Below are positions 355-30,186 of a stretch of 58,584 nt of DNA, piece after piece. The notes beneath the pieces are model-generated. The model was not told the DNA's origin and searched no databases. It was given only the letters and a program-made list of their open reading frames with translations. Source of the DNA: an uncultured Bacteroidales bacterium (GTDB taxonomy: Bacteria > Bacteroidota > Bacteroidia > Bacteroidales > PUMT01). Numbering within the stretch: the stretch's first letter is position 1; each line of letters opens with the position of its first letter. Where the stretch lies: the NCBI GenBank assembly GCA_964520585.1, contig CAZFOO010000012.1, positions 1 through 58,584 on the forward strand, given 5' to 3'. Made by a program: the position numbers and the translations under genes.

Positions 355-366
355 GGCGAAGCTGTG
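355..366 (+). promoter_or_regulatory. candidate ops-like antitermination loading site (GGCGAAGCTGTG)
   Basis: GCGAAGC mini-hairpin core at 356-362 in the leader, about 55 nt after the -7 element; resembles ops (GGCGGTAGCGTG). Confidence 0.3.
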
Positions 367-498
367 AGTATATTTAATCCCCCCTGTTTATTTGCCGGTT
401 TTTATATCTTTGTCCGAATTGAAAACAATAGAATCCTCCAGTTACAGTTTTATTTTCTTAACCATCTATTAATTAATACGAACAGATATTTTCTTAGA

Positions 499-2934
499 AT
501 GGCAAATCCTATTCGTTTACTGACGTTTATCCTATTTTGCGGAGGCTCATTGTTATCCTCTGCTGATTCCATAGCTCAGTCTCCTCTGGACGCGAGGGAT
601 CTTTCAACTGTAAGATCTGAAAATGTAAGTAATGCTCAATTAATGAGATTCATCGAACAGGGGGAAGCCCAGGGGGTATCGGTTGATGACGCCATACAGA
701 TGGCAAGGTTGCGAGGACTGCCGGCCTCTGAAGCAGAAACTCTTGCACGGAGGATACGAGAACTGGAGATGGAACGTCAGAGGCAGGAATTTGAAGAAAC
801 CGGATTTAGCGATCCTGATAGTTTAACTCAAGATACTATATCTGAACTCGAAGGTGGACTTGATGCTATTGGCAGAAGGATTTTTGGAGCCAGGTTGTTC
901 AGCCAGGAGGGACTCACTTTTGAACCATCAATGAACGTTCCTACACCCGTTAATTATGAACTTGGTCCTGGTGATGAGATTGTAGTTGATATATGGGGAG
1001 AGGCTACAAATGTTCACCGATTGGAAGTAAGTAATCAGGGTACAGTAACTATAGAGAACCTTGGCCCAATATATGTTCATGGTTTAAGTATAAGTGATGC
1101 CAGTGACCGGATTATCGAAAAATTGAGATCACTCTACAGGGGATTACGTCCCGGAAGTGCAAATCAGACTGTTTTCGCCAGAGTTCATCTAGGTCAGTTA
1201 AGGAGCATACAGGTAACAGTTATGGGAGAAGTGCGATCACCGGGCAATTATACACTTTCATCTCTGGCAACAGTTTTCAATGCTTTATATAATTCACAAG
1301 GGCCCAATAATATTGGTTCTTACAGAAGCATTAAGGTAATACGTGGTAATGAAGTTGCAGCAGAGCTGGATGTTTATGATCTGCTGATACATGGTAACCA
1401 GATTGATAATATTCGTCTGAGGGATCAGGATATAATAAAGGTTGACCCTTACACTGCCAGAGTTGATGTGCAGGGTAGAGTTAAAAGGGAAGGTTTTTAT
1501 GAAATGAAAGAGGGAGAAAGTCTCGCAGACCTTATACAGTTTGCCGGACAATTTGCCGATTCCGCATATACCAAACAGGTAAGGATACACAGGTATACTC
1601 CTATCGAAAGAAAGATATTAAGCGTAAGACAGGAAAATTATCCTGATTTTGAGTTAATGAATGGGGATGTTGTTTTCGTTGATCAGGTGCTTGACAGGTT
1701 TGAAAACCGGATAAGTATATCAGGAGCAGTATGGCGCCCGGGAGAATATGAGCTTCGGGAGGACATGACTGTTTATGACCTTATAAGTGAAGCAGAAGGC
1801 CTTCGTCCTGATGCATACCGGAGCAGGGCAATTATAAACAGGTTAAAAGATAACTTTGATTTCACCCTTTTGTCATTTGATCTTGAAAGACTCATGGAAG
1901 ATCCGGATGAATATAATATTCCGCTTCAACCCGAAGATGAAGTACTGATACAGACTCTTTTTGATATGAGAGAAAACTATACCGTTCTTATTGAAGGAGC
2001 GGTCAGGGAAGTTGGAGAATATCCCTTCAGAGACAATATGACTCTTGAAGACCTCATACTTAAGGCAGATGGTTTTCGCGAATCTGCTACTGAAGCCAGG
2101 ATTGAAGTTTTCCGCAGGATCATTGGAGAATCAGATGCATCAAGCAGGGGAAACCGTTTGGCTGAAACATTTATCTTTGAAGTTGCAAGGGACTTAAGCC
2201 TTAGAGATGAAGATAAACGATTTATACTTCAGCCATTTGATCAGGTATATGTCCGCCGTAAACCCGATTACCATGTTCAGCAGAATGTAATACTGGAAGG
2301 TGAGGTTATGTATCCCGGAACATATACTCTTGCTAACCGGAATGAGAGGATTTCTGATGTAATAAAAAGAGCCGGCGGACTAACTCCTGAGGCATATCCG
2401 GAAGGAGCAACTCTTGTTCGTGATATTGAGCAGCTCGAAAGAGCTGACATTGATATTATGGCCGGTTATGATGAGGTTATTGATACGGTAGCACAGCAGG
2501 AAAATTTTGTTGGGATTAACCTTCCTCAAATCATGGCAAAGCCTGGTTCCACAGAGGACCTCTTCCTGCGGGAAGGTGATATTATCAGGGTCCCGCTGGA
2601 GCTACAAACCGTTAAAGTCAGTGGAGCGGTCCTCCGGGAAGTAGAAGTAAGGCATATCGAAAAAAGAAGTCTGCAATACTACATAAACCGTTCAGGAGGA
2701 TATTCAGAAGATGCCTTGAAACGCCGGGTGTATATTGTTAATGCAAATGGCAGCGTTAAGGCCCGAAGGAAATTCCTCCTTTTTAATTCCAATCCTGTAA
2801 TAGATCCAGGCGCCGAAATCATCATTCCTCAGAAAGCCGATCGTGAACGGATGGACACGAGAGAATTTATTTCTGTAATGGCCTCTATTGCTTCTACAGC
2901 CGCTGTAATTGTAACAATTATTACCAGACTTTAA
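499..2934 (+). CDS. SLBB-repeat polysaccharide export protein (Wza/KpsD-like)
   Basis: ATG 499 followed by a signal peptide; Poly_export motif YELGPGDEIVVDIWG; repeated SLBB units (V.GEV.PG.Y); C-terminal PGAEIIIP plus helix. Confidence 0.9.
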   Translation: MANPIRLLTFILFCGGSLLSSADSIAQSPLDARDLSTVRSENVSNAQLMRFIEQGEAQGVSVDDAIQMARLRGLPASEAETLARRIRELEMERQRQEFEETGFSDPDSLTQDTISELEGGLDAIGRRIFGARLFSQEGLTFEPSMNVPTPVNYELGPGDEIVVDIWGEATNVHRLEVSNQGTVTIENLGPIYVHGLSISDASDRIIEKLRSLYRGLRPGSANQTVFARVHLGQLRSIQVTVMGEVRSPGNYTLSSLATVFNALYNSQGPNNIGSYRSIKVIRGNEVAAELDVYDLLIHGNQIDNIRLRDQDIIKVDPYTARVDVQGRVKREGFYEMKEGESLADLIQFAGQFADSAYTKQVRIHRYTPIERKILSVRQENYPDFELMNGDVVFVDQVLDRFENRISISGAVWRPGEYELREDMTVYDLISEAEGLRPDAYRSRAIINRLKDNFDFTLLSFDLERLMEDPDEYNIPLQPEDEVLIQTLFDMRENYTVLIEGAVREVGEYPFRDNMTLEDLILKADGFRESATEARIEVFRRIIGESDASSRGNRLAETFIFEVARDLSLRDEDKRFILQPFDQVYVRRKPDYHVQQNVILEGEVMYPGTYTLANRNERISDVIKRAGGLTPEAYPEGATLVRDIEQLERADIDIMAGYDEVIDTVAQQENFVGINLPQIMAKPGSTEDLFLREGDIIRVPLELQTVKVSGAVLREVEVRHIEKRSLQYYINRSGGYSEDALKRRVYIVNANGSVKARRKFLLFNSNPVIDPGAEIIIPQKADRERMDTREFISVMASIASTAAVIVTIITRL

Positions 2935-2954: not shown

Positions 2955-4088
2955 ATGCAAAACAACGATTCTCAAAGAGATGAAATTGATTTAGTTGAAG
3001 TTCTTCTTGTCTTTTGGCGTGAAAGAAAAGTGATATATATCAGTGTAGTCATCTTTGTTATGCTGGGAGTTCTAAAAACCTGTTCCACCCCAGATGAATA
3101 CACATCAGAAGTTAAATTGATGCCGGAATCAAATGTTCAGAATAACATGGGGGGATTTGCCAGACAATTTGGTATAAGTCTGCCTAATAATACAGAACAG
3201 GGCATTCCTTCAAGATATTATCCTGATATTACAAAAAGCCTGCCTTTTATTATTCCATTAATGCAATTTGAGGTTATCATTTCTGGCACAGATGAGAAAA
3301 TTACTTTATATGAATATATTTTAGAATATAAATCACAAAGATCTTTTATTCAGAAATCAACAGACAAAGTTAAAAAGTACACCATTTTTTTACCTTTTAC
3401 TATATTGGACTGGATCACAGGTTCTAATTCAGCCAGTAAAGATGAACCCTCATTTTCTTTAGACATGGAAGATGACGGACAGGAGGATAAAAATAATCAG
3501 AATAACGTATTAAGTTTAACAAAATCAGAATGGTCTGTAGTTAGGGAATTACAAAACTCAACAGGGTTGGATATTGATCGTGAATCAGGAATAATTACCA
3601 TATCTTCTTCAATGCCTAATCCTGTAATCGCTGCAATGGTTGCAGACAAAGTAACAAGTTTGCTTGCTAAATATATCAAAGAATATAAAACTGAAAAAGC
3701 AAAGGTTGATTTTTTATTTGTCGAAAATAGATTTGAAGAGGCAAAGGCGGACTTTAATATAGCACAAGAACGTTTAGCAAGATTTCGTGATGAAAACAGG
3801 GGGCAATTGACACAAACAGCAAGAATCGAGGAACAACGTCTCCAAAGCCAGTATGACCTCTCATTTAACGTATATAATGTATTAGCCGGCAGATTAGAGG
3901 AAGCCCGAATTAATCTTCAGCAGGAAACGCCTGTTATTAATATAATAGAACCAGCTTCTGTCCCAACCCAAATTAGTTCTCCAAAAAGAAATTTTATCTT
4001 AATCCTTTATTTTGTTTTAGGGATATTCTTTGGGTTTATATTTATTTTTTTACGGATTTTATGGAAAAAAATTCGTCGTCAGTTATAA
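2955..4088 (+). CDS. wzz: chain-length determinant Wzz
   Basis: N-terminal EIDLVEVL plus TM, coiled-coil middle, IIEPASVP..SSPKR plus C-terminal TM; no kinase domain. Confidence 0.85.
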   Translation: MQNNDSQRDEIDLVEVLLVFWRERKVIYISVVIFVMLGVLKTCSTPDEYTSEVKLMPESNVQNNMGGFARQFGISLPNNTEQGIPSRYYPDITKSLPFIIPLMQFEVIISGTDEKITLYEYILEYKSQRSFIQKSTDKVKKYTIFLPFTILDWITGSNSASKDEPSFSLDMEDDGQEDKNNQNNVLSLTKSEWSVVRELQNSTGLDIDRESGIITISSSMPNPVIAAMVADKVTSLLAKYIKEYKTEKAKVDFLFVENRFEEAKADFNIAQERLARFRDENRGQLTQTARIEEQRLQSQYDLSFNVYNVLAGRLEEARINLQQETPVINIIEPASVPTQISSPKRNFILILYFVLGIFFGFIFIFLRILWKKIRRQL

Positions 4089-4141: not shown

Positions 4142-5596
4142 TTGTCATCTCTAAAACAAAAAACAATTTCGGGACTTGCCTGGAGTTTTATCGATATTTT
4201 CTCTAATAAAGGTATTAGTTTTGTTTTTGGTATAATTTTAGCCAGACTTCTTACACCCCGGGAGTTTGGTCTGGTGGGAATGGTTAGCATTTTTATCGCA
4301 ATTTCAAAATCTTTAATGGATAGTGGCTTTTCAAGTGCTTTAATAAGAAAGAAAGACTGTACCCAAACTGATTACTCCACCGTCTTTATATTTAATACTT
4401 TATCCAGTATTTTTCTTTACTTAATTTTATATTTATCGGCAAATGCAATAGGTGAATTTTTCGATGAACCCCAACTTGAGCTCATTCTGCAGGTTTTAGG
4501 AATAGGATTAATAATAAATTCTTTCTCTATTATACAGAGGGCTATCTTAACTAAAAGAATAGATTTTAAACTACAAACCAAAATATCACTTCTTGGCTCA
4601 TTAATAGCTGGAAGTATTGGAATATTTCTGGCATATAGTGGATACGGAGTGTGGAGTCTGGTCTATATGTCTTTGGCAGGTTTTTTTGTTTCAACCGTTT
4701 TATTATGGTTATGGAATCAGTGGAGGCCTTCACTGATATTCAGCACAGATTCATTCAGGGAACTGTTTTCTTTTGGTTCTAAACTTATGTTAAGCAGTAT
4801 ACTTAACACCGTATATAAAAATATTTATAATCTTGTAATTGCAAAGTATTACACTGCTGCAGATTTGGGATTCTATACCCGGGCTAATCAGTTTAAGGAA
4901 TTCCCTGCTGAAAAATTAACTTCAATTATTCAGAGAGTTAGCTATCCTGTTCTTTCCTCTGTACTTGATGATATCGCCCGGTTACGTTACTACTATCAAA
5001 AATTAATTAAAAGCACAATGCTGATAAGTTTTGTTCTTATGATGGGCCTGGCTGCGACTGCTGAACCCTTAATTATTACTCTTATAGGCGAAAAATGGCT
5101 CCCATCTGTTATGTATTTACAATTGCTTTGTTTTGTTGGTATGCTTTATCCTTTACATGCAATTAATCTTAATATGTTAAAAGTTTTAGGCAGGTCAGGC
5201 CATTACTTAAAGCTCGAAGTAATTAAGAAGTTTATTGCCATCCCTATTATACTTACAGGAATTTTCATTGGTATTTTCGAAATGTTATTAGGAATGATTA
5301 TCACTTCCTTTATAAATTATTTTTTGAATTCATATCTTTCCGGAAAATTAATCAGCTACTCAAGCTGGAAACAGTTAAAAGACATTTTTCCCTCCTTTAT
5401 GCTGGCACTGATAATGGGAGGTATTCTGCTATCAATCAACATGTTTTTTGAAATTAACAGCTTCCTCATTCTAATGATACAAGTTATAACCGGAATCGTT
5501 ATTATTATAGGAGTCTCTGAAATATTTAGATTAGAAAGTTATATAGAGATTAAAGCAATAGTTATTGATAAAATAAAGCGTAATGGATCTTTATAA
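4142..5596 (+). CDS. wzx: Wzx flippase (WzxC-like)
   Basis: SLKQKTISGLAWS...ILARLLTPREFGLVGM; multi-TM; TTG start. Confidence 0.9.
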   Translation: MSSLKQKTISGLAWSFIDIFSNKGISFVFGIILARLLTPREFGLVGMVSIFIAISKSLMDSGFSSALIRKKDCTQTDYSTVFIFNTLSSIFLYLILYLSANAIGEFFDEPQLELILQVLGIGLIINSFSIIQRAILTKRIDFKLQTKISLLGSLIAGSIGIFLAYSGYGVWSLVYMSLAGFFVSTVLLWLWNQWRPSLIFSTDSFRELFSFGSKLMLSSILNTVYKNIYNLVIAKYYTAADLGFYTRANQFKEFPAEKLTSIIQRVSYPVLSSVLDDIARLRYYYQKLIKSTMLISFVLMMGLAATAEPLIITLIGEKWLPSVMYLQLLCFVGMLYPLHAINLNMLKVLGRSGHYLKLEVIKKFIAIPIILTGIFIGIFEMLLGMIITSFINYFLNSYLSGKLISYSSWKQLKDIFPSFMLALIMGGILLSINMFFEINSFLILMIQVITGIVIIIGVSEIFRLESYIEIKAIVIDKIKRNGSL

Positions 5597-7031
5597 CCCT
5601 GATTGGAACAAAAACCTTGCGAATTTTTTATTTCTTAAAAGTGCATTCTGTACTTCTAATAAGTTCATTAAAACTGAAGAAGTAATTGACTGGTTAAAGG
5701 AACAAAATGATAAAGTGAAGGTTAAGGTTATAAGGACTTCTTTTAGTAAATTAAAAGACTGGAGTTATGAAGGTGTTAGTGGTTCAATCAGACATAAAAC
5801 AGGAAAATTTTTCAGCATAGATGGGATCCGCGTAGATACCAACTGGGGAAATGTAAGTAATTGGGAGCAGCCAATTATCAATCAACCTGAGGTAGGTTAT
5901 CTTGGATTTATAACAAAAGAATTTGACGGAGTATTATATTTTCTTACCCAGGCAAAAATTGAGCCGGGAAATGTAAATTATGTTCAGTTATCTCCAACGC
6001 TACAAGCAACCCGGAGTAATTATACACAAGTTCATAGCGGAAGCAGGCCACAATATCTTGAATATTTTGTAAAAGCAAAGCCAGAGCAAATTCTTTTAGA
6101 TCAACTTCAATCAGAACAAGGCGGGAGGTTTTTAAAGAAAAGGAACCGGAACATAATCATTAAAATTGAGGATGATATACCGGTATATGATAACTTCACT
6201 TGGCTTACACTAGCTCAGATTAAGAAGTTGATGCAGAAGGACAATCTTGTGAATATGGATACGCGGACTGTCGTTTCAGGCATACCATACGGTAGTTTTA
6301 ACGATAATGTCATAGATTTCTTTAATTTTTTGGCAGAAGAAACTTCAGGAAATCAAATATCAAAAGCCTTATTTAAATCCGTACTATCGCAAGAGGGTGC
6401 CTATAACAGCATTGAAGATATAATGTCCTTTATGACCCACCTGAAAAGCATTTTTGATTTGGATGTTAGAAACAAACCATTGGAAGGATTAACACAATGG
6501 ATTTTTGATGATGAAGGAATTTATCATCTCGAAAATAAGTACTTTAAAGTTATACCTGTTGATGTCGAAATTGGTAACAGAGAAATTGTAAAATGGTGCC
6601 AGCCAATGGTAGAGCCTGCGCAGGAAGGATTATGTGCATTTGTTTGTAAAGAAATTAATAATGTGCTGCACTTTATAGTTCAGGCAAAACTTGAAGCCGG
6701 AAATTTCGATATTATTGAATTTGCGCCGACAATTCAGTGTCTGACAGGGAATTATCGACAAACAAAACATGGCGCACTTCCCTTTCTTGATTATGTATTG
6801 AATGCCCGAAAGGAACAGATTGTATATAATTCATTACAGTCCGAAGAGGGTGGCAGGTTTTATAAAGAACAAAACAGAAATATGATTATTTTATCTGACG
6901 ATGAAATTGGCACAGAGTTACCCCCAAACTATATATGGATGACCCTGAATCAGTTACATACCTTTCTTAAATTTAACAACTATTTAAATGTGCAGGCACG
7001 AAGCTTAATTGCTGCTATATCATACATTTAA
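5583..7031 (+). CDS. NDP-hexose 2,3-dehydratase (EvaA/OleV family)
   Basis: Internally duplicated domain: WEQPII/WCQPMV, QAKIEPGN/QAKLEAGN, LSPTLQ/FAPTIQ, QSEQGGRF/QSEEGGRFY. Confidence 0.9.
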   Translation: MDLYNPDWNKNLANFLFLKSAFCTSNKFIKTEEVIDWLKEQNDKVKVKVIRTSFSKLKDWSYEGVSGSIRHKTGKFFSIDGIRVDTNWGNVSNWEQPIINQPEVGYLGFITKEFDGVLYFLTQAKIEPGNVNYVQLSPTLQATRSNYTQVHSGSRPQYLEYFVKAKPEQILLDQLQSEQGGRFLKKRNRNIIIKIEDDIPVYDNFTWLTLAQIKKLMQKDNLVNMDTRTVVSGIPYGSFNDNVIDFFNFLAEETSGNQISKALFKSVLSQEGAYNSIEDIMSFMTHLKSIFDLDVRNKPLEGLTQWIFDDEGIYHLENKYFKVIPVDVEIGNREIVKWCQPMVEPAQEGLCAFVCKEINNVLHFIVQAKLEAGNFDIIEFAPTIQCLTGNYRQTKHGALPFLDYVLNARKEQIVYNSLQSEEGGRFYKEQNRNMIILSDDEIGTELPPNYIWMTLNQLHTFLKFNNYLNVQARSLIAAISYI

Positions 7032-7092
7032 TCTGTTTCTTTTATGTTACATTTATTAATTTACAGGCTAAAGCATTTCAAATTTCAGGTAC

Positions 7093-8175
7093 ATGTATAT
7101 TAATATATTACGACATATAGTTTTAATTATAACTTTTTGTTGTTTTCTTTTTATTTACGGTTGTGAGAAGGTAGACAATTATGAAATATTTTATGAAATT
7201 GATGAGAGTTATTTTGAATATCCATTCGATACACTTTTGGATTATTATATAATTAGTGCATGGAGAATTCTGGGAGATACTGTTCCTGCTTATACCCCGG
7301 AAATGGTCGCAACCCATACAAAATTGGTTGGTAAACTTCCCTGGGTAACTCCAACTTCAAGCGCAAATTTGCAGTTTGTCATCGGGCAAACTTCTGGCTG
7401 GCCAAAAAATCCTGAATATCCTGATGACCCTGAAATTCCTCCCCAAAATATTTACGGGTATCAAATAACAGATCTTGATTACAATAACCCTAAAGTAAAA
7501 GTTGTTTTAACTGCTGGCCAGCACAGCACTGAATTTCCGGGAAACTATGCGCTGGAAGGAATGGTTAATTTCCTTGCCGGAAGTGATCCACGGGCTGTTT
7601 TTCTGCGTAGGAAAGCAGTATTTTATGTTTATCCGGATATCAACCCGGAGGGTAGGTATATGGCCATAAAAAAAATTAATCTGCAGTCAGCTCCAGATCC
7701 TAATGCAAAAAATGACGGACGCTACAGGGGAAATCCGGAATTATATGCAGCAGGTGAAAAAGATCACAACAGGGTTTGGCTGGAAGAGTTTTTCGGTAAA
7801 TTTTCAACGATTGACCTTCTCATAGCGGCATGGGAAAAGGATTTCGGAAATAAAGCAGATTACTTGTGGGATATGCATGGACCACAGCCAACCGGAAACT
7901 GGCGCTCACCAAGCCTCGATGCAAGTACCAATGCATATGCTAAGGCTCTTATGAGGATCGAACCTGAATTGTTAAGATGCGGACCCCCGGGAGAATTTAA
8001 GGCATATGTTGCTTATAGCCCACCCGGGAAAATAGGATTATATGCTTTGGATGATCAAATTGGTCTTCATGTTAAATACCCTTATGTATATGAAGGCGGA
8101 CCATGGACACGTGAGCGGTTATTATTATCAGGTAAGAGACTCGCTATAGCCTTTTATGAGGTATTAAATAATTAA
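7093..8175 (+). CDS. M14 zinc carboxypeptidase-fold lipoprotein
   Basis: Lipobox-like LFIYGC; HxxE Zn motif (GQHSTE), YPDINPEG, DHNR, DMHG. Confidence 0.7.
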   Translation: MYINILRHIVLIITFCCFLFIYGCEKVDNYEIFYEIDESYFEYPFDTLLDYYIISAWRILGDTVPAYTPEMVATHTKLVGKLPWVTPTSSANLQFVIGQTSGWPKNPEYPDDPEIPPQNIYGYQITDLDYNNPKVKVVLTAGQHSTEFPGNYALEGMVNFLAGSDPRAVFLRRKAVFYVYPDINPEGRYMAIKKINLQSAPDPNAKNDGRYRGNPELYAAGEKDHNRVWLEEFFGKFSTIDLLIAAWEKDFGNKADYLWDMHGPQPTGNWRSPSLDASTNAYAKALMRIEPELLRCGPPGEFKAYVAYSPPGKIGLYALDDQIGLHVKYPYVYEGGPWTRERLLLSGKRLAIAFYEVLNN

Positions 8176-8251
8176 TTGTAAATTTTTTACTTATAACCTT
8201 TTCGAAGCAACCGGATAAGTCTGAGTTATATATATTCTGATTTGCGTTAAT

Positions 8252-9235
8252 ATGAAAGAAGTTATAAATATTGGTATAATTGGCATCGCTAACATTGCTT
8301 TGCGCTCGGTAATTCCTTCCATTATAGATTTAGGTGAGTATTTCAGGTTATATGGACTAGCAAGCAGAAACGCTGAAAAAGCAAAAGACACCTGTAGATT
8401 ATTTAACACAAAGGCATATCAGGATTATGATGAACTAATTAATGATGATAATCTGGATGCTGTATATATTCCTTTGCCAAATGCCCTCCATGCATCCTGG
8501 ATAGAAAAATCCTTACAAAAAGGATTGCATGTTTTAGTAGAAAAATCACTTGCATGCAATTTGGAAGATGCACTATATTTGAATAATCTGGCCAGGGAAA
8601 AATCACTCGTATTATTGGAAAATTTTCAGTTTCAATTTCATAGCCAACTCTATTATATTAAAGAATTGTTGCAGGAAAATAAAATTGGCGGTTTAAGATG
8701 CATTAGAAGTGCATTTGGATTTCCCCCATTTCCTGATAAGAATAATATCAGGTATAAAAAGGAACTTGGTGGTGGGGCATTGCTGGATGCTGGAGCATAT
8801 CCGGTTAAAATTTCTCAGGTTTTTCTTGGGAATGACCTGGATGTTGAATCAGGTAATCTATTTTATGATGAAAATTTAAATGTTGATATCTGGGGAGGCG
8901 GTTGTCTGAAACAAAAAAACGGATCATTATTTTCCCAAGTAGCATTTGGGTTTGACAATTTTTATCAGTGTAATATTGAATTGTGGGGAAGTAAGGGCAG
9001 AATTTCTACAAATAGAATATTTACTGCTCCCCCTGATTTTGAGCCTGTTATTAAATTAGAAACGGGATATGGGAAGGAAATCATAAAATTGCCCCCGGAT
9101 AATCATTTTATAAAGATGTTAATGCATTTTTATGATTTGATCACACTCCAGAAAAATACAGAACAGGAGTATTTACAAAACATAAATCAGGCCCGGCTTA
9201 TATCTGAACTTAAAACAAAATCAAATGGGCAGTAA
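8252..9235 (+). CDS. Gfo/Idh/MocA oxidoreductase, probable NDP-3,4-diketo-2,6-dideoxyhexose 3-reductase (OleW/KijD10-like)
   Basis: GIIGIANIA, AVYIPLPNALH, HVLVEKS, NIRYKKELGGGALLDAGAYP; near the 2,3-dehydratase. Confidence 0.8.
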   Translation: MKEVINIGIIGIANIALRSVIPSIIDLGEYFRLYGLASRNAEKAKDTCRLFNTKAYQDYDELINDDNLDAVYIPLPNALHASWIEKSLQKGLHVLVEKSLACNLEDALYLNNLAREKSLVLLENFQFQFHSQLYYIKELLQENKIGGLRCIRSAFGFPPFPDKNNIRYKKELGGGALLDAGAYPVKISQVFLGNDLDVESGNLFYDENLNVDIWGGGCLKQKNGSLFSQVAFGFDNFYQCNIELWGSKGRISTNRIFTAPPDFEPVIKLETGYGKEIIKLPPDNHFIKMLMHFYDLITLQKNTEQEYLQNINQARLISELKTKSNGQ

Positions 9236-10310
9236 ACCAATATATGTTACTCAGCCATCTCTTGCTCCACTGGATGAATATGTAGAATTATTAAAGGGTG
9301 TATGGAAACGTGGGATCCTGACTCATAACGGCCCCCTTGTTCAACAGTTTGAAAAGGAGATTGCTTCAAAATTAAAGTTGTCTAATTTCGTCGCAGTCGC
9401 CAATGGAACTATAGCAATCCAGATGGCAATTAAAGCCCTGGAACTTCAGGGAGAAATAATTACTACACCTTTTACATGGATAGCAACAATTAGTGCAATA
9501 AAATGGGAAGGTTGCACACCTGTTTTTTGCGATATAGATCCTGAAACCTTAAATATAGATCCAACCAAAATAGAGTCTCTTATAACTAAGAAGACCGTTG
9601 CGATTATGCCTGTGCATGTTTTTGGCAATCCATGTGATGTTGATGCTATAGATATTATTGCCAAAAAGCATAATCTCAAAGTTATTTATGATGGTGCTCA
9701 TGCTATTGGTTCTAAGTATAAAGAAAAAAGTCTTTTGGAATATGGCGATATAACAGCAACCAGTTTACATGCTACTAAGTTATTGAATACTGCTGAAGGA
9801 GGAGGTTGCATTACAAAAAACCCGGAGCTTTATGAGAAACTTAAGAGAATTAGATTTTTTGGACATAATGAAGAGAAAGATATCGTTGAAGATGGGTTTA
9901 ATGGCAAAATGACAGAAATCCATGCAGCATTGGGTATCGCAAATTTAAAATATTATGATTCTGTTTTAATGGATCGTGAAATTAAGTACAATAAGTATCA
10001 GGAGGGTTTATCAGAATTAGAATTTCTTAAATTTCAAAGTGTTCCTCAGGGAACTTCTAATTATTCATATTTCCCGGTTATTTTTGATACCGAAGACAGA
10101 TTATTAAAAACGCTGAAACTTTTAAATGATCATCAAATTTACCCAAGGAGGTATTTTTACCCTTCGGTAAATACATTTACCAATATTTTGGATTTTCAGG
10201 AATGTCCAGTTTCGGAAGATATTTCAAAAAGAATTTTGTGTTTACCATTGTATTTAAGTTTGGTCAATGACGAAATGAATAAAATAATCAAGATAATAAA
10301 TCAAAATTAG
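9225..10310 (+). CDS. DegT/DnrJ/EryC1/StrS PLP aminotransferase, VioA-like sugar 4-aminotransferase
   Basis: IYVTQPSL, LTHNGPLVQQFE, IYDGAHA, SLHATKLLNTAEGG, RRYFYPS. Confidence 0.85.
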   Translation: MGSKPIYVTQPSLAPLDEYVELLKGVWKRGILTHNGPLVQQFEKEIASKLKLSNFVAVANGTIAIQMAIKALELQGEIITTPFTWIATISAIKWEGCTPVFCDIDPETLNIDPTKIESLITKKTVAIMPVHVFGNPCDVDAIDIIAKKHNLKVIYDGAHAIGSKYKEKSLLEYGDITATSLHATKLLNTAEGGGCITKNPELYEKLKRIRFFGHNEEKDIVEDGFNGKMTEIHAALGIANLKYYDSVLMDREIKYNKYQEGLSELEFLKFQSVPQGTSNYSYFPVIFDTEDRLLKTLKLLNDHQIYPRRYFYPSVNTFTNILDFQECPVSEDISKRILCLPLYLSLVNDEMNKIIKIINQN

Positions 10311-10343
10311 TTAATAAACAATATTTTAATTTTAAAAAAACTA

Positions 10344-10808
10344 ATGGAACCCTCAAAACTTGGTCATTATTATGAAGAGTTTGTTGTTAACGAAACTATC
10401 GAGCATTCACTTTCAAAAACTATTTTCGAAAGTGACAATAATATGTTTTCACTTCTGACAATGAATCATCATCCTGTTCACATTAATACTGATTATGCTA
10501 TAAACAATCAACATGGCAAGTTGTTGGTTGTCGGCACGTTAGTGTTTTCACTTGTTGTTGGAATTACAGTACCTGATATCAGCGGTAAGGCAATTGCTAA
10601 TTTAGGTTATGAAACCATTGATCACCTTGCTCCAGTCTTTATTGGTGATACAATTTATGCTAAAACAAAGATTTTATCAAAAAAAGCATCTTCATCAAAA
10701 CATGACAGGGGCATTATTCATGTTGAAACCATTGGGTATAATCAAAATAATGAGGATGTTATTAAATTTAAGCGTTCAGTTTTATTAAAAAAACAAAATT
10801 TTATCTGA
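10344..10808 (+). CDS. MaoC-family (R)-specific enoyl-CoA hydratase/dehydratase
   Basis: GHYYEEF, DNNMFSLLTMNHHPVH catalytic-type segment, PVFIGDTI. Confidence 0.85.
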   Translation: MEPSKLGHYYEEFVVNETIEHSLSKTIFESDNNMFSLLTMNHHPVHINTDYAINNQHGKLLVVGTLVFSLVVGITVPDISGKAIANLGYETIDHLAPVFIGDTIYAKTKILSKKASSSKHDRGIIHVETIGYNQNNEDVIKFKRSVLLKKQNFI

Positions 10809-10809
10809 T

Positions 10810-11700
10810 ATGAGCCAAAATTTATTTCGCAGTTTAATGTTTGTCCCTGCACACAATAAAAAACTTATGGATAGTGCAGCAAAATCCAATGCCGACGTTC
10901 TGCTTCTAGATATTGAAGATTCTGTTCAACCAAAGGATAATAAACAAATTGCCAGAAATACGATTATTGATTACGTTAAAAAGGGCAAATTTATAAACCA
11001 TTGTCTTTATCCACGTATCAACGACAGTGAAAGCGGAGAGTTATTAAAGGATTTGACGCAATTAACTATAGAAGGTATTGATGGATTTATGTATCCAAAA
11101 TCATATAAAGGAGATGACATATATTTTATTGACAAATTGCTTGAGACTATAGAATATGAAAGAGGGTTTGAAAAAGGCAGATTTAAGCTTATACCATTAA
11201 TCGAAACCTCTGCTGCTGTACTGAATGCGCAAGACATAATCAAAGCTAGTAAACGCGTTGTTGCTATTGCGTTTGGTTGTGAAGATTTTATTACAGATTT
11301 GCAGGGGGTGCATGATCATGAAGGTCAGAGTATTTTTACTCCAAGAGCATTGATTGCTCTTGCCGCCAGAGCAAATCAGGTTATCCCTGTGGATACAGTA
11401 CATATTAATGTTCATGATATGGAAGATCTGGAACGTAATCTGATTATTGCAAAAAACCTTGGTTTTGAAGGTATGCTTGTGCTAAATCCAAAAGAAATTC
11501 CTTTGGTACATAAATATTTTTCTCCTTCATTAAAGGAATATGATTCTTCTCTTGAAATGCTGAAACTTGCTGCAGAAGCTGAAAAGGAAGGGAAAGGTGT
11601 AGCAGTCATGAACAACAGATTTATTGGACCGCCTATGGTAGTAACAGCTAAAAGAATTATTGGAAGGTATGAAATGATTCAAAATAAAACAGTTCTCTGA
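10810..11700 (+). CDS. CitE/HpcH-family CoA-ester lyase (malyl-/citramalyl-/citryl-CoA lyase-like)
   Basis: RSLMFVPA, LLDIEDSV, PRIN, LIET, FGCEDF, LGFEGM, FSPS. Confidence 0.85.
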   Translation: MSQNLFRSLMFVPAHNKKLMDSAAKSNADVLLLDIEDSVQPKDNKQIARNTIIDYVKKGKFINHCLYPRINDSESGELLKDLTQLTIEGIDGFMYPKSYKGDDIYFIDKLLETIEYERGFEKGRFKLIPLIETSAAVLNAQDIIKASKRVVAIAFGCEDFITDLQGVHDHEGQSIFTPRALIALAARANQVIPVDTVHINVHDMEDLERNLIIAKNLGFEGMLVLNPKEIPLVHKYFSPSLKEYDSSLEMLKLAAEAEKEGKGVAVMNNRFIGPPMVVTAKRIIGRYEMIQNKTVL

Positions 11701-11702
11701 AA

Positions 11703-12362
11703 ATGAAAAAGCTTGTTATCTTAGGAGGCAGGGGTATAGGAATGATTGCTGCTTCAGTTGCAAATGATTTGGGTACATATGAAATTATGGGGTTTTTAAA
11801 TGATTTTTTGCCTGTCGGTGAAAAAATAGGAAAATACAGGAGCTATAAAATTATTGGCAAGTCATTAGATGTTTCTAACTATTTGGAAGACGAAAATGTT
11901 TATTTTTTTATCGGTTATGTAGGAATGAAAAATGAAAAAGAAGTATATGAAAAAATCACTTCATTAAATATTCCCCGCAACCGTTATGCAACTTTAATTC
12001 ACCCTACAGCAATAATCCCAAAGGGCTTTTGTTGTATTGGAAATGGCGTTTTGATGGCACCCCTGTCACAATTATCTCCGGATACTACTGTTGAAGATAA
12101 TTGTATTTTATTGCCAAATTCTTTCCTGGGTCATGATAGCACGATGAGAAGGTTTTCACATATTACCTCAAATAGTGTAGTTGGCGGGAATGTCATTATC
12201 GGGAAAGGTGTGCACATAGGCACTAATGCAACAATACGTGAAGATGTAACTGTTGGTGATTTTTCTCTCATTGGCTCAGGTTCTGTTGTACTTAAAGATG
12301 TTCCTGGTAATTCAATTGTTGTTGGAAACCCGGCAAGGATACTAAAATCAAAAAATGAATGA
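11703..12362 (+). CDS. NeuD/PglD/VioB-family sugar N-acyltransferase (left-handed beta-helix)
   Basis: LVILGGRG Rossmann-like start, ATLIHPTA, GHD, hexapeptide repeats, VVGNPARIL. Confidence 0.85.
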   Translation: MKKLVILGGRGIGMIAASVANDLGTYEIMGFLNDFLPVGEKIGKYRSYKIIGKSLDVSNYLEDENVYFFIGYVGMKNEKEVYEKITSLNIPRNRYATLIHPTAIIPKGFCCIGNGVLMAPLSQLSPDTTVEDNCILLPNSFLGHDSTMRRFSHITSNSVVGGNVIIGKGVHIGTNATIREDVTVGDFSLIGSGSVVLKDVPGNSIVVGNPARILKSKNE

Positions 12363-13345
12363 GTATTCCTCTGGTTTCTGTCTGCTGCATTACCTATAAT
12401 CATGAAAATTATATCGGCGATGCAGTTGAAGGATTCTTAAGCCAACGGACCACCTTTCCTGTTGAGGTTATTATCCATGATGATGCTTCAACTGACAGGA
12501 CAGCCGGTATTATTAAAAAATATGCTAATCGGTATCCTGAAATAGTTATACCAATACTTCAGGAAGTAAATCAATATTCAAAGGGCATAAAGCCATCAAC
12601 AACTTATGTTTGGCCCCGGGCTAAGGGTAAATATATCGCTTTATGTGAAGGTGATGATTTTTGGACTGATCCTTTAAAACTGCAGAAACAGGTTGACTTT
12701 TTGGAAAATAATAAAGATTTTGTTTTATCCTTTCATAATACCATTGGCATAAACGAAGATAAAGGATATCCGGAACAAATAAAAATGGTAAATCAGTTGT
12801 TACAATTACCTCCGGAAAAAGTGCCGGTTGAGCATCGTACTCATACATGCTCTTTATTTTTTCGCAATATTATCAAGGATTTTCCAAAGGAATACTTCGA
12901 AGTTGTCAACAGTGATACTTTTTTAATTTTTTTATTATCACGACATGGAAAACGTATATATCAGAATGATATCTACCCATCGGTAAGGAGATATCATAAA
13001 ACTTCGGTCTGGGCATCAAAAGGTTTAGAGTACAAGAAAAAACAAAAAATAAACACCTATTCCAAGATGCTTGAGATAGCAATTAATGATGATGAGCGTA
13101 ATCGGATCAAGGTAAATATTATTAAAGAGCATATTCAGATTTTTCAACATCAGTTTTCCAGATTCAAGATAAGATCTGGGTTTAAGAACCTGTTTGTAAC
13201 TTTAAAGATCGCAATCAAACAAAAAAACCTGCTCTTGTTTTGTTTATATGGTTTGCCCGGGTTGTACTACCTGTCAAGAATACCATATAAGGTATACGCA
13301 AAACTGAAATACTATATGAGTAATTCATTGACTATCAAATCCTGA
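12359..13345 (+). CDS. GT2 glycosyltransferase
   Basis: VSVCCITYNHENYI, HDDASTD, ALCEGDDFWTDPLKLQKQV. Confidence 0.9.
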   Translation: MSIPLVSVCCITYNHENYIGDAVEGFLSQRTTFPVEVIIHDDASTDRTAGIIKKYANRYPEIVIPILQEVNQYSKGIKPSTTYVWPRAKGKYIALCEGDDFWTDPLKLQKQVDFLENNKDFVLSFHNTIGINEDKGYPEQIKMVNQLLQLPPEKVPVEHRTHTCSLFFRNIIKDFPKEYFEVVNSDTFLIFLLSRHGKRIYQNDIYPSVRRYHKTSVWASKGLEYKKKQKINTYSKMLEIAINDDERNRIKVNIIKEHIQIFQHQFSRFKIRSGFKNLFVTLKIAIKQKNLLLFCLYGLPGLYYLSRIPYKVYAKLKYYMSNSLTIKS

Positions 13346-14591: not shown

Positions 14592-16310
14592 ATGATAGAA
14601 AGTTTTTTAATATTTAGTAAATCATACAGGTTTTTATGGTTTTTTTTAATTGCAACCTTTTTGGCAACTAATATTTCTGGTAATGATGTTCCTGCTTTCC
14701 CTGGTGCAGAAGGATTTGGGAAATACTCAAAAGGAGGAAGGGGAGGGGTAGTTTTACAAGTAACTAATGTGAATGACAACGGACCAGGTAGTTTACGGGA
14801 AGCTTTGGAATATGAAGGGCCTCGTATAATTGTCTTTTCTGTAAGCGGAGTTATTAGTTTGAAGGAACCCATTTTTATTGATAACCCTTTTGTAACGCTG
14901 CTTGGGCATACTGCTCCTGAAAAAGGTGTTGCTATTCGGGGTAATCAGTTACATATACGCACTCATGATGTTATAATAAGATTCTTGAGAATGCGTATCG
15001 GAGATGTGAATTTTGGTAAGCTTAACCATTGGCAATCATTAGATGCAATAGATATTGGTAATGGTAAAAGCGATGATGTTCATAATATTATTATTGATCA
15101 CTGTTCTATAAGTTGGGCTACAGATGAAAATATTGGTTTATGGGGTGACTCCTATAATATTACAATTCAAAACAGCATTATTAGTGAAGGCTTAAACTTT
15201 GGTAAAAATATTCAAAAAAGAGGAATGGGTATACTGGTTGGTCCTTGGGCTGAAAGGATTTCCATTCTGAATAATCTTTTTATTCATAATGGTAAAAGAA
15301 ATCCAAGAATGGGCAATGGGGGATTAGGGGATGTCAGAAATAATACAATATATAATCCTGGCTGGATGGGAATAAATATTTGGAATGAAAAAACAGATAA
15401 ACCACAAACTCTTAATATAGTTAAGAACATTTTTATACCTGGTCCTGATACAGAATTTGAAAAAGAAATAAGTATATGGGATCCTACTACACATCCTGGG
15501 AAGGTTTATATTGCTGATAACCTCGGATTTTCAGGTGATACTAATTATGATAACTGGGTAATGGTAGAAGATGCTAATTCCCCTAGGGATCCTATCACTC
15601 CGGAACAAATTGAAAGAGTTAAATCCGACGAGGAGTTTCTTAATGAGGTTTCTAAAACTAAATCATTTGAAGAAATGAATCATTATGTTCAATATTATGT
15701 AGGTGCAAGTTTGCCTTTAAGGGATGAAGTTGATGTAAGACTTATCAATGAGTGGAAATCAGGAAAAGGGAAATTAATAAAATCACAAGATGAAGTTGGT
15801 GGTTGGCCTGTATATAGTGCCGGTATTAAGAGGGTTACCTTGTTTGGTGAAGGGAATGGGGATGACATTATTCCTTTGGGATGGAGAGAAAAGTATAATA
15901 TTTGGCGTGGAGACGAAAATGAAGATTTCAATGGTAACGGATATACTAATATTGAGGAGTTTTTTAATGGTACTAATCCCTTGAGCCAGGAAGAACCTTC
16001 CATAATGCAAATATTTGAAGGCTTTGGAGCTATAGTTGAGGAAAAAAGAAGTGTAGAATTAGAACAAAATTTCCCTAATCCTTTTCGCGATTATACTAAT
16101 ATTAGATTCTCTATACAAAAACATGTTTTTGTATTATTTAATATTTACGACTATACAGGTATAAAGGTTGATGAATTGGTTGATGCAGAACTTTACCCCG
16201 GCCGATATGAAATCCTTTGGAAACCCTCAAAAGGACTTCCTCCAGGGATTTATTTAGGATATATGGTTATAGGTAATGAAAAATTAAGTATTAAAATGAT
16301 GATGAATTAA
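14592..16310 (+). CDS. PL1 pectate-lyase-like protein with T9SS type A sorting domain
   Basis: PAFPGAEGFG..GGRGG..VTN..D.GPGSLR, IIDHCSISWATDE, RNPR; C-terminal LEQNFPNPF...IYD..G...PPGIY...K.M. Confidence 0.85.
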   Translation: MIESFLIFSKSYRFLWFFLIATFLATNISGNDVPAFPGAEGFGKYSKGGRGGVVLQVTNVNDNGPGSLREALEYEGPRIIVFSVSGVISLKEPIFIDNPFVTLLGHTAPEKGVAIRGNQLHIRTHDVIIRFLRMRIGDVNFGKLNHWQSLDAIDIGNGKSDDVHNIIIDHCSISWATDENIGLWGDSYNITIQNSIISEGLNFGKNIQKRGMGILVGPWAERISILNNLFIHNGKRNPRMGNGGLGDVRNNTIYNPGWMGINIWNEKTDKPQTLNIVKNIFIPGPDTEFEKEISIWDPTTHPGKVYIADNLGFSGDTNYDNWVMVEDANSPRDPITPEQIERVKSDEEFLNEVSKTKSFEEMNHYVQYYVGASLPLRDEVDVRLINEWKSGKGKLIKSQDEVGGWPVYSAGIKRVTLFGEGNGDDIIPLGWREKYNIWRGDENEDFNGNGYTNIEEFFNGTNPLSQEEPSIMQIFEGFGAIVEEKRSVELEQNFPNPFRDYTNIRFSIQKHVFVLFNIYDYTGIKVDELVDAELYPGRYEILWKPSKGLPPGIYLGYMVIGNEKLSIKMMMN

Positions 16311-19931: not shown

Positions 19932-21245
19932 ATGGTAATACGAATTAAAAACCTTCTAACTGTTAAATTAGAATATATTTCAGCCCTGGCAATAGGGTTT
20001 TTATTATTCTTTTTTTTATATGGAATAGATTTTACCTTTCTCCCTCTTTCGACAGCAAGGATAATTGTGTTGGCCGGGGCAGGTTATATATTGCTAAGCA
20101 TAACTTCAGATACCTCTATAATTTTAAGGAGGTCGTTTGTTTTTTTATTAATGCTGTATTTTGTTTTATTAAGCTGGATAGCATTTATAACATTCGTGTA
20201 TGATCTTAAGGATATTACGATATTAACGGGGATACTACTAATGTTTGCTCATTCTTTTATAGGAGGGTATTTCTTTGCTATGTTATTTAATAGATTTGAA
20301 TACGATTTTAGAAGTGTTATACTGTTTATTCAGGTTGCCATAACAATACAGGCAGTTTTTATTATTATATATTTTTTGAGTTGGGATTTCAGAGAATTTA
20401 CTTTCTCATATATACCCGAAACAGGAAATATAGACTACAGGGAAAACCTGTTTCAATCCAGGGGTTTAACTCATTCTTCTGGTGCAGCTCTTTCAGTTTT
20501 ACAATCATTAGGAGTTTTATTTACCTCATATCTGCTATCGACAGTTAGTTTTAAGAGCAAACAATTTCTTTATTTATCCCTTAGTTTTGGATTGCTCTGT
20601 ATTTCTATATTTTTAACAGGAAGAACTGGGTTTCTAATGCTACCATTAGTGGGTGTTTACTTTTTCATGCTCATGGTTTTCAAGCTCAAAATACCAAAGA
20701 ATGTAGGGTTTTTTATTTTAATTGCACCACTTATGCTTCTTGTATCCTATTTTACATTCAGATATGTATACAATAATTTTTTTGGTGGCATAACAACTGC
20801 AGGAGGTGAGGATATTCTCAGCAGAGTTTTTAGATGGTATATTGAAGAATTCTATAGTGATGGTCGGTTACAATCTAAAACATTTACTTTTTTAACATCA
20901 ACTCATTTGTTTTTTCCTGAAGATAATTCAGTTCTATTATTTGGAGATCCAACCACATGGTCTCTTAACCGTATAAGATCAGACATTGGCCTTGTCCGAA
21001 TGTGGCACGGAATAGGTCTTCTGGGAATAATTTTGTACTATTCATTTATAATAGCTCTTTTTATGCAAATGATATTATCATCCCGAGGGTTTAATGAAAA
21101 GCTTATGTTATCCTTGTTGCTCCTTTTTCTATTTATAATTGAATTCAAAGAACCATTTATGTTTAGTGTGTCAGTGAATGCATTTTTTATCCTGATATTT
21201 AGTTATATGTTCTTGAATAACATCAGGAATGGTGTTAAGTTATGA
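19932..21245 (+). CDS. wzy: probable Wzy polymerase
   Basis: About 10-11 hydrophobic segments, LTGRTG, late periplasmic loop with SDIG; position among GTs. Confidence 0.7.
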   Translation: MVIRIKNLLTVKLEYISALAIGFLLFFFLYGIDFTFLPLSTARIIVLAGAGYILLSITSDTSIILRRSFVFLLMLYFVLLSWIAFITFVYDLKDITILTGILLMFAHSFIGGYFFAMLFNRFEYDFRSVILFIQVAITIQAVFIIIYFLSWDFREFTFSYIPETGNIDYRENLFQSRGLTHSSGAALSVLQSLGVLFTSYLLSTVSFKSKQFLYLSLSFGLLCISIFLTGRTGFLMLPLVGVYFFMLMVFKLKIPKNVGFFILIAPLMLLVSYFTFRYVYNNFFGGITTAGGEDILSRVFRWYIEEFYSDGRLQSKTFTFLTSTHLFFPEDNSVLLFGDPTTWSLNRIRSDIGLVRMWHGIGLLGIILYYSFIIALFMQMILSSRGFNEKLMLSLLLLFLFIIEFKEPFMFSVSVNAFFILIFSYMFLNNIRNGVKL

Positions 21246-28786: not shown

Positions 28787-28799
28787 TTGGGGAAATTTT

Positions 28800-29411
28800 A
28801 TGACAATTTATTCCAGGTTTTTTAAAATAATTTTTGACTTTTTGGTCAGTATCTTCTTGTTGATACTTTTAACTCCTATTATTCTGGTAGTTACTATATG
28901 GTTATTTCTGGTTAATGGAGGGAAGCCTTTTTTTTATCAGTTAAGGCCAGGTAAAAACGCCCGCATCTTTAAGCTGATCAAGTTTAAAACAATGACCGAC
29001 AAAACAGATAGTCATGGTAATTTGCTGACTGATTCTGAAAGACTCACTTCACCGGGTCGTTTAATTCGTAATTTATCTTTAGATGAACTTCCTCAATTAT
29101 TAAACGTAGTTAAAGGCGATATGAGTCTTGTTGGGCCGCGACCTTTACTAATAGAATATTTGCCATTATATAATGACAGGCATAAACGCAGGCATGAAGT
29201 TAAACCTGGAATAACAGGATGGGCCCAGGTTAACGGACGGAATGCAATTAGCTGGGAAGAAAAGTTTGATTTTGATATATGGTATGTAGATAATATATCA
29301 TTTTTAATAGATCTTAAAATACTCTGGATCACTTTTTTAAAAGTATTAAAAAAGGAAGGGATTAATCAGAAAACTGACATTCCTATGGAAAAATTTAAAG
29401 GAAGTGAATAA
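28800..29411 (+). CDS. pglC: initiating phosphoglycosyltransferase (PglC-like)
   Basis: KFKTM, SLDELPQLLNVVKGDMSLVGPRP, PGITGWAQVNGRN; ATG 28800 preferred to TTG 28770. Confidence 0.85.
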   Translation: MTIYSRFFKIIFDFLVSIFLLILLTPIILVVTIWLFLVNGGKPFFYQLRPGKNARIFKLIKFKTMTDKTDSHGNLLTDSERLTSPGRLIRNLSLDELPQLLNVVKGDMSLVGPRPLLIEYLPLYNDRHKRRHEVKPGITGWAQVNGRNAISWEEKFDFDIWYVDNISFLIDLKILWITFLKVLKKEGINQKTDIPMEKFKGSE

Positions 29412-30010: not shown

Positions 30011-30186
30011 AGGTGTGAACAGTTACTATAGATGTTCAGGTTTCCAATTTTCAATGTAATATCTTTTCAGAACCTTGTTCAGATTTTTATATTGATTCAA
30101 ATCTTTTGACCCTGTTTCGTTCAGTTTTATTAAAAAATAGTAGAGGATTGCACAACAGTAAATTAGTTTTATTTGAATAGTTTTTG

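Follow-up and report, generated by a model that had tools for sequence, protein, structure and literature searches.

In the vicenistatin pathway, the vicenisamine branch reportedly comprises a 2,3-dehydratase (VinD), a 3-ketoreductase (VinE) and a 4-aminotransferase (VinF), and the early steps towards forosamine are said to be carried out by SpnO, SpnN and SpnR. These pathways remove the C2 oxygen of a thymidine diphosphate (dTDP)-sugar by the combined action of a Nudix-type dehydratase and a 3-ketoreductase of the GFO/IDH/MocA family, after which C4 is transaminated. The present study concerns a sub-cluster of genes of the same kind, situated directly after the wzx gene in a polysaccharide locus of an uncultured Bacteroidales bacterium (assembly GCA_964520585.1, contig CAZFOO010000012.1). 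The whole of that contig, 58,584 bases in length, is referred to below as the window. Comparative genomics and gene context make it likely that the sub-cluster encodes a dTDP-sugar branch leading to a 4-acylamino-2,4,6-trideoxyhexose for a capsule or exopolysaccharide of the Wzx/Wzy type. A passage in a 2022 review places the 2,3-dehydratases identified so far in antibiotic pathways (PMC8987622). A 2,6-dideoxyhexose, digitoxose, is described in another paper as a constituent of the protein O-glycan of Tannerella forsythia (PMC6120980).

It is apparent that counterparts of the first three vicenisamine genes are present in the window, but the sub-cluster departs from the vicenisamine type in several respects. 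It contains neither an N-methyltransferase nor a polyketide synthase gene, and the amine would be N-acylated rather than N-methylated. It resides in a Wzx/Wzy polysaccharide locus of a member of the Bacteroidota, not in a polyketide cluster, and its aminotransferase groups with others from Bacteroidota in a distinct clade. Directly 3' of wzx, nine co-directional genes, all on the + strand, overlap or are tightly spaced, the intergenic gaps from wzx onward being, in order, -14, 61, 76, -11, 33, 1, 2, -4 and 16 bases. The interval 5583-13345 runs exactly from the start of the dehydratase gene to the stop of the gene for a family 2 glycosyltransferase (GT2). An earlier note on this DNA had described these genes as lying directly after wzx, most with overlapping or near-adjacent ends, and had assigned them to enzyme families; a check of coordinates and gaps agrees with the former, and the matches in Pfam, NCBIfam and the PDB uphold all of the latter at the level of the family.

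The pathway envisaged would begin with RmlA and RmlB, encoded elsewhere in the genome, which would provide dTDP-4-keto-6-deoxyglucose. Dehydration across C2-C3 by an EvaA-like enzyme would give a 3,4-diketo-2,6-dideoxy intermediate; a KijD10-like enzyme would reduce C3, and a DesI-like pyridoxal phosphate enzyme would aminate C4 to yield dTDP-4-amino-2,4,6-trideoxyhexose. This product would be N-acylated by an LbH transferase of the VioB type, for which a MaoC protein and a CitE-like protein would supply the acyl-CoA donor, and the adjoining GT2 would add the acylated sugar to the repeat unit. The chemical steps, their regiochemistry and stereochemistry, and the acyl group are all predictions from families and gene order, and the configurations at C3 and C4 are not readable from sequence. 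Genes for RmlB (477 bits) and RmlA (478 bits), both above their cut-offs, were indeed found elsewhere in the same genome. The only above-cut-off rmlB of the genome lies on a very short contig, of 2216 bases (G000:C236).

The dehydratase matches PF03559 with 497 bits over two stretches, corresponding to tandem Hexose_dehydrat domains in one chain, and both halves were recovered a second time. Its sole PDB match is EvaA (4j7g, 383 bits), to which it aligns over EvaA residues 27-461, and its Glu127 and Glu178 align with the catalytic Glu139 and Glu190 of EvaA, so that both are kept. Mutation of either Glu139 or Glu190 abolishes the activity of EvaA, as stated in a passage of the review cited above (PMC8987622). 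The predicted activity is the conversion of dTDP-4-keto-6-deoxyglucose to the 3,4-diketo-2,6-dideoxy product. The ketoreductase has as its best PDB match KijD10 (3rbv, described as a 'sugar 3-ketoreductase'), with 206 bits over residues 5-323; the next unrelated entry scored 95 bits. Lys98, which belongs to an EK motif, and Tyr183 occupy the positions of residues 120 and 204 in the 3rbv chain, which we take to be the catalytic Lys102 and Tyr186 of KijD10, the 18-residue offset being our own count. Both proteins thus resemble their models over the full length, with catalytic residues retained, but EvaA and KijD10 serve the synthesis of epivancosamine and digitoxose in actinomycete antibiotics, whereas the setting here is that of a surface polysaccharide.

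A dehydratase-led scan, with one genome per species, yielded 27 related loci (designated L). Because these loci had been selected through the dehydratase, an even sample of 400 other Bacteroidota genomes (designated G) was also used, together with 14 control genomes. Downstream of the dehydratase, a ketoreductase homologue is encoded in 26 of the 27 loci, the exception being a contig of 1497 bases. An aminotransferase at least 60% identical to that of the window is present in 15 loci, and four of the 12 loci without it are contigs of 3306 bases or fewer. This recurrence of the pair and of the aminotransferase orthologue shows that the arrangement of the sub-cluster is not due to chance. Carriers of the aminotransferase-bearing cassette were found in Pontibacter, Flavobacterium, Prolixibacteraceae, Paludibacteraceae, Bacteroides intestinalis, Alistipes, Prevotellaceae and Hoylesella timonensis. 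Two of them are cultured, Pontibacter pamirensis (L004) and Bacteroides intestinalis AF14-32 (L017). Records of Rhodoferax, Legionella and Tolypothrix also contain the dehydratase-ketoreductase pair, and the dehydratase is accompanied by more distant ketoreductase-like matches in Chlorobiota (L022, 36% identity) and Pseudodesulfovibrio (L025, 33%). PF03559 was detected in 7 of the 400 sampled Bacteroidota genomes and in none of the 14 controls. With the dehydratase family at this frequency, and with digitoxose known in T. forsythia, the cassette is not very rare, and the earlier remark that 2-deoxy sugars are rare in O-antigens and capsules needs correction on this point.

In loci that lack the aminotransferase, a gene for a short-chain dehydrogenase/reductase (SDR) stands in its place (L002, L011, L013 and L024); L011 has an FdtA-like isomerase in addition to the SDR. 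The ketoreductase orthologues of such loci (59% identity in L013, 51% in L011) are as similar to that of the window as are those of loci with the aminotransferase (59% in L004, 58% in L001), which argues that the enzyme reduces C3 whether or not the aminotransferase is present. Most simply, the aminotransferase and an SDR 4-ketoreductase can be read as alternative resolutions of the same 4-keto-2,6-dideoxy intermediate. No SDR was found in the sub-cluster of the window with Pfam, and an RmlB profile run over the whole contig returned one SDR-like stretch, at 37312-37689, within a PglF-like gene; the earlier observation that the sub-cluster has no SDR 4-ketoreductase was therefore correct. Two of the related loci, L021 and L022, from metagenome-assembled genomes (MAGs) of Bacteroidota and Chlorobiota, respectively, have another gene order, in which a WecE-like aminotransferase stands between the dehydratase and a ketoreductase-like gene, and a GT4 glycosyltransferase and a PurD-like (GARS) ATP-grasp enzyme come after these. 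The aminotransferase of L021 scores above the equivalog cut-off for WecE-like dTDP-4-amino-4,6-dideoxygalactose transaminase (431 versus 375). It looks as if a 4-amino-2-deoxy pathway has been assembled independently in these loci, and the separate WecE-like lineage in L021 supports C4 amination of a 2-deoxy intermediate.

Among the loci with an SDR, L013, from a Rhodoferax MAG, combines the dehydratase and the ketoreductase with genes for an RmlD-like reductase and for a sugar C-methyltransferase, adjoining a Wzx gene (Table 1). This is a mycarose-like set for a branched 2,6-dideoxy sugar in a proteobacterial glycan locus.

The gene that follows the aminotransferase encodes a changing N-modifier. 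It is an LbH transferase in L004 and L012, and also in L001, where it lies past an inserted nuclease-like gene; an N-formyltransferase in L009; an ATP-grasp ligase in L017, L018 and L019; and a fusion of LbH and GT2 domains in L014 and L027. In the sampled genomes G368 and G369 an LbH transferase or an ATP-grasp ligase likewise stands beside the aminotransferase. Genes for a PF15617 C-C bond lyase and a PF15632 ATP-grasp protein, families first described from pathways linked to Ter operons, were observed directly after the 2-deoxy aminotransferase in L003, L012, L018 and L085 (Table 1), and their presence suggests further unusual N-substituents.

In the window, the acyltransferase contains both a PglD_N domain and hexapeptide repeats. 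It scored 159.5 bits against the NeuD/PglB/VioB model TIGR03570, for which the cut-off is 160.8, and its best PDB match is VioB (7txp, 83 bits). In L004, L014 and L027 the LbH acyltransferase is likewise succeeded by, or joined in one protein with, a homologous GT2 domain, and the GT2 adjoining it in the window is likely to be the transferase for the modified sugar. The last two steps proposed, C4 transamination and N-acylation by an LbH enzyme, resemble those leading to dTDP-viosamine and N-acetylviosamine (VioA/DesI-type enzyme and VioB; 2po3 and 7txp), but a substrate without the 2-hydroxyl group is predicted for the window, and the acyl group is probably not acetyl.

Among the related loci examined, acyltransferase orthologues of at least 64% identity were seen solely in loci that carry the MaoC/CitE-like pair (L001, L007, L008 and L071), and for this reason the pair is considered most likely to make the acyl-CoA donor. 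The MaoC protein scored 132 bits against the itaconyl-CoA hydratase model NF038241 (RipB/Ich), below the equivalog cut-off of 340, and is also nearest to two solved mesaconyl-/beta-methylmalyl-CoA (de)hydratases; it is filed as hot-dog and MaoC-like only, and the 11 orthologues compared all share its Asn41 and His46. The CitE-like protein finds its nearest matches among malyl-CoA lyases and CitE in both the PDB and NCBIfam. Six orthologues of this CitE-like protein, at 61-68% identity, were present in the 400-genome sample, with two more relatives at 46% and 38%. In all eight of these carrier genomes MaoC is adjacent to the CitE-like gene, and in all eight an LbH transferase and a DegT aminotransferase are nearby, in a polysaccharide locus. 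Of these carriers, G135 alone possesses the 2-deoxy cassette as well. The genes of L072 run RmlA, RmlB, a further HpcH-like gene, MaoC, CitE-like, LbH transferase and a WecE-like aminotransferase that exceeds its equivalog cut-off (541 versus 375). The pair is a separate, portable module that goes with N-acylation whichever amino sugar is involved. An additional HpcH/CitE-like gene, shorter than the first (270-285 aa), was found beside the pair in five of the eight sampled carriers and in L007; the window has none.

The same two families are paired in malyl-CoA lyase and mesaconyl-CoA hydratase (Mcl/Mch) and in the RipC/RipB (Ccl/Ich) system of itaconate degradation, which include the best structural and NCBIfam matches. 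The pair in the window differs from them in that its hydratase is a single hot-dog protein, its setting is polysaccharide synthesis rather than central carbon metabolism, and a glycine replaces a catalytic aspartate of the lyase. In malyl-CoA lyase, according to passages of one paper, the Mg ligands Glu141 and Asp168 are conserved, as are Glu44/Asp45, Asp42 and Arg76; Asp299, in the C-terminal lid, is the proposed acid/base for formation of the acetyl-CoA enolate and is conserved across the CitE-like superfamily and malate synthases, and a thioesterase clade has Glu at this position (PMC3832036). With residues counted on the 4l9y chain (offset 21), the CitE-like protein keeps the Mg and Arg sites as D34, E36, D37, R69, E132 and D159, all invariant in 11 orthologues. 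Under Asp299, in all five PDB alignments shown, stands Gly273, within the motif FIGPP and with no acidic residue nearby. Gly273 is also invariant in 11 orthologues, and IGPP is kept in 116 of the 120 best homologues among the 4585 database proteins of the subfamily (E ≤1e-20), which argues that the change was selected and is not a product of decay. Public sources label these homologues 'CoA ester lyase' or 'citrate lyase subunit beta'. The family part of the earlier designation 'CitE-like lyase' is right; judged by its residues, however, the protein lacks one defining feature of a working C-C lyase, and the designation needs correction to that extent.

The pair might, of course, have nothing to do with the acyl donor, being instead a remnant catabolic pair or one that acts on another substrate, in which case the sugar would simply be N-acetylated. 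The lack of the catalytic Asp would suit such a role, as would the fact that the closest solved transferase is VioB, which is named for the N-acetylation of viosamine. Set against these points are the strong conservation of the pair (mean column identities of 64% and 75%), the invariance of its Mg and Arg sites, the retention of IGPP in nearly all of the best homologues and the position of the pair in all eight sampled carriers, inside polysaccharide loci where a sugar aminotransferase and an LbH transferase are close by. We regard this alternative as rather unlikely.

If the pair does make the donor, our best guess is that the acyl group would be a C4-C5 hydroxy- or enoyl-dicarboxylic one, of the citramalyl, mesaconyl, itaconyl or malyl kind. 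This ranking is based on the C5-dicarboxylate flavour of the MaoC matches, on the failure to find an isocitrate lyase in the genome (97.8% complete), and on the known presence of N-(4-malyl) amino sugars in O-antigens of Pseudoalteromonas (PMC3210612). A malyl group derived from glyoxylate was dropped as the first choice, since glyoxylate would have no obvious source without isocitrate lyase. The most original element of the locus is the acyl module, whose CitE-like enzyme lacks the catalytic Asp, and no open-access full-text paper on MaoC/CitE genes in glycan loci was found. That MaoC and the Asp-less protein form a previously undescribed portable module is a tentative and rather unlikely idea. 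Such a module would use a non-canonical form of CitE chemistry, perhaps a decarboxylative condensation, for which no enolising base is needed, and would supply a dicarboxylic acyl-CoA, either branched or hydroxylated, of the citramalyl, mesaconyl or itaconyl type.

The aminotransferase has DesI as its top PDB match (2po3, 177 bits), the C3 enzyme QdtB scoring 149 bits, and every NCBIfam model that it matches best describes a C4 enzyme. In a maximum-likelihood tree of the 34 aminotransferases gathered in this analysis, all 16 that adjoin the dehydratase-ketoreductase pair form one clade (support 100/99), and a sister clade stands at about 50% identity (support 95/95). Within the 400-genome sample, aminotransferases of at least 67% identity occur in three genomes (G368, G135 and G369), in each case within about 1-2 kb of the dehydratase on the same contig. 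The next best relatives, of at most 54% identity and from 69 further genomes, are never adjacent to a dehydratase, and no FdtA-type isomerase was seen beside them in the seven genomes for which the immediate neighbours were annotated. Gene context points to amination at C4. The earlier proposal that the aminotransferase resolves the C4 ketone of the 2-deoxy intermediate is supported by this clade and adjacency, by the alternation with an SDR, by the conservation of the ketoreductase and by L021.

It is conceivable that two sugars are made, namely a 2,6-dideoxy-4-ketohexose formed by the dehydratase and the ketoreductase and finished by an unlinked reductase, and an N-acyl-viosamine formed from dTDP-4-keto-6-deoxyglucose by the aminotransferase and the acyltransferase. 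Members of the sister clade do lie in loci without the dehydratase, the locus has many glycosyltransferases, and other SDR genes exist elsewhere in the genome; yet close orthologues of the aminotransferase are found solely beside the pair, an SDR takes their place where they are missing, and the contig has no SDR apart from that in the PglF-like gene, all of which makes the formation of two sugars improbable. Very improbable is amination at C3 of the 3,4-diketo product (as by EvaB and DnmJ), with the GFO/IDH/MocA enzyme reducing C4 to give a 3-amino-2,3,6-trideoxyhexose: in known antibiotic pathways a 3-aminotransferase does act after a 2,3-dehydratase, and C3 and C4 enzymes of the DegT family are hard to separate by score, but the oxidoreductase is specifically like KijD10, a C3-ketoreductase, it is equally conserved in aminotransferase-less loci with an SDR 4-ketoreductase candidate, the best NCBIfam models of the aminotransferase are all C4 enzymes, and a WecE-like C4 enzyme of independent origin fills the same role in L021.

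Several points weigh against a 4-acylamino-2,4,6-trideoxyhexose as the product. The best NCBIfam model for the aminotransferase, DesI TIGR04427, gave 254 bits, far under the equivalog cut-off of 650, and the protein is accordingly filed as DesI-like only. The PDB scores do not cleanly split C4 from C3 enzymes, so similarity alone cannot fix the position of amination. The acyltransferase could use plain acetyl-CoA, the CitE-like protein, with Gly at the catalytic position, may neither make nor cleave a C-C bond, and, as no isocitrate lyase was found, the glyoxylate for a malyl group would have no obvious source. The structure of the polysaccharide and the chemistry of the pathway are predictions from genes. 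Finally, a gene weakly similar to M14 peptidases interrupts the operon, so that co-transcription of the sub-cluster genes is itself presumed.

The earlier note had listed this M14-like gene, in brackets, among those of the sub-cluster. A homologue is absent from all 27 related loci and from all eight further related loci examined. Its product scored 31.6 bits against Peptidase_M14, has an N-terminal hydrophobic segment ending in ...IYGC and contains an HxxE motif (H144-x-x-E147). The family is small (49 database proteins), environmental and spread over several phyla, with labels including KSB1 and Planctomycetota, and has no sugar context. The N-terminal segment with its Cys, the lack of homologues in related loci and the nature of the family led us to reject it as a pathway enzyme; it is probably a co-directional insert outside the nucleotide-sugar pathway.

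Table 1. Coordinates of features in the window and, where a locus number precedes them, in related loci. TM, transmembrane; PCP, polysaccharide co-polymerase.
Feature	Position	Strand	Remarks
Wza-type polysaccharide export protein	364..2934	+	Pfam: Poly_export and SLBB repeats
Wzz/PCP chain-length determinant	2955..4088	+	Pfam: Wzz and GNVR, without kinase domain
Wzx flippase	4142..5596	+	Polysacc_synt_3, 321 bits; 11 TM-like segments; 14-base overlap with dehydratase gene
EvaA-like dTDP-4-keto-6-deoxyglucose 2,3-dehydratase (predicted)	5583..7031	+	PF03559; 482 aa; two Nudix-like domains
M14-like putative lipoprotein	7093..8175	+	Weak Peptidase_M14 match
KijD10-like NDP-hexose C3-ketoreductase (predicted)	8252..9235	+	GFO/IDH/MocA family
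DesI-like sugar aminotransferase, probably acting at C4	9225..10310	+	DegT/DnrJ/EryC1, 300 bits
MaoC single hot-dog protein	10344..10808	+	154 aa; mesaconyl-CoA hydratase-like
CitE-like/malyl-CoA-lyase-like TIM-barrel protein	10810..11700	+	HpcH_HpaI; 296 aa
LbH N-acyltransferase, NeuD/PglB/VioB type	11703..12362	+	PglD_N and hexapeptide repeats
GT2 glycosyltransferase	12359..13345	+	Pfam
PelZ-like pectate-lyase/beta-helix protein	14592-16310		198 bits to PelZ model; C-terminus weakly matches a protein dependent on the type IX secretion system (T9SS)
Wzy polymerase candidate	19932..21245	+	437 aa; 11 TM-like segments; no Pfam family
Zinc alcohol dehydrogenase-like and GFO/IDH/MocA oxidoreductase fusion	23338-25506		722 aa
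Heparinase II/III-like protein	25605-27470		
PglC-like initiating sugar transferase	28770-29411	+	Bac_transf
PglD-like acetyltransferase	29411-30010	+	
Second DegT aminotransferase (PglE-like)	30184-31359	+	
Fkp-like bifunctional protein	31432-34317		Fucose pyrophosphorylase and GHMP kinase
PglF-like dehydratase	36463-38319		
Branched 2,6-dideoxy sugar set	L013:10001-15584		Rhodoferax MAG
PF15617 C-C bond lyase and PF15632 ATP-grasp	L003:14468-15610, L012:8853-9275, L018:13499-14773, L085:5719-6993		Directly after 2-deoxy aminotransferase
Shorter second HpcH/CitE-like gene	L007:13994-14806, L070:9683-10540, L072:9698-10510, L074:7783-8604, L075:9852-10679, L076:8258-9091		

The start of the contig is a long co-directional polysaccharide locus, with a G+C content of approximately 0.30-0.39, in comparison with 0.40-0.52 further downstream. 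As can be seen in Table 1, the components expected of a Wzx/Wzy-dependent locus are present: Wza, Wzz, Wzx and an initiating phosphoglycosyl transferase were found, and Wzy is represented by a candidate. At least six GT4-type glycosyltransferases are encoded, as are an Fkp-like fucose-activating enzyme and Wzi. The PglC- and PglD-like genes, the second DegT aminotransferase and the PglF-like dehydratase form a separate branch of the bacillosamine type. The Fkp-like gene adjoins that for Wzi and suggests that fucose is salvaged to GDP-fucose for the same polymer. The PelZ-like and heparinase-like proteins, the latter also encoded within the biosynthetic locus, may serve in polymer processing or chain trimming. 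The dehydrogenase-oxidoreductase fusion lies among glycosyltransferase genes.

A structural precedent is the digitoxose of T. forsythia, which is likewise a surface-glycan sugar from the Bacteroidota and is of the 2,6-dideoxyhexose kind that the related dehydratase-ketoreductase-SDR loci without the aminotransferase would fit. An amino group is missing from digitoxose, and the product of the window would be its 4-acylamino analogue. In the text of the digitoxose paper, the words 'dehydratase' and 'deoxy' have 0 occurrences each and no biosynthetic genes were seen named (PMC6120980). A search of open-access full text that covered comma-bearing terms only in part found no paper describing a polysaccharide pathway built from a 2,3-dehydratase, a 3-ketoreductase and an aminotransferase.

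Should the proposed pathway be correct, 4-acylamino-2,4,6-trideoxyhexoses would be a class of surface sugar missed by structural work, and the acid lability of their glycosidic bonds could explain why. The cassette would also offer a ready-made set of enzymes for glycodiversification. Should the MaoC/CitE-like pair prove to be an acyl-donor module of an undescribed kind, the product would be a new surface monosaccharide, a 2-deoxy-4-amino sugar with an acidic and possibly electrophilic acyl group. The CitE-like subfamily is in any case large, and Gly replaces, in 116 of its 120 best members, a residue described as conserved superfamily-wide, which makes it a clear subject for enzymological work. 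The cassette with the aminotransferase is carried by host-associated Bacteroides, Alistipes, Prevotellaceae and Hoylesella as well as by environmental Bacteroidota, and could for that reason matter for the diversity of capsules, for phage receptors and for recognition by the immune system.

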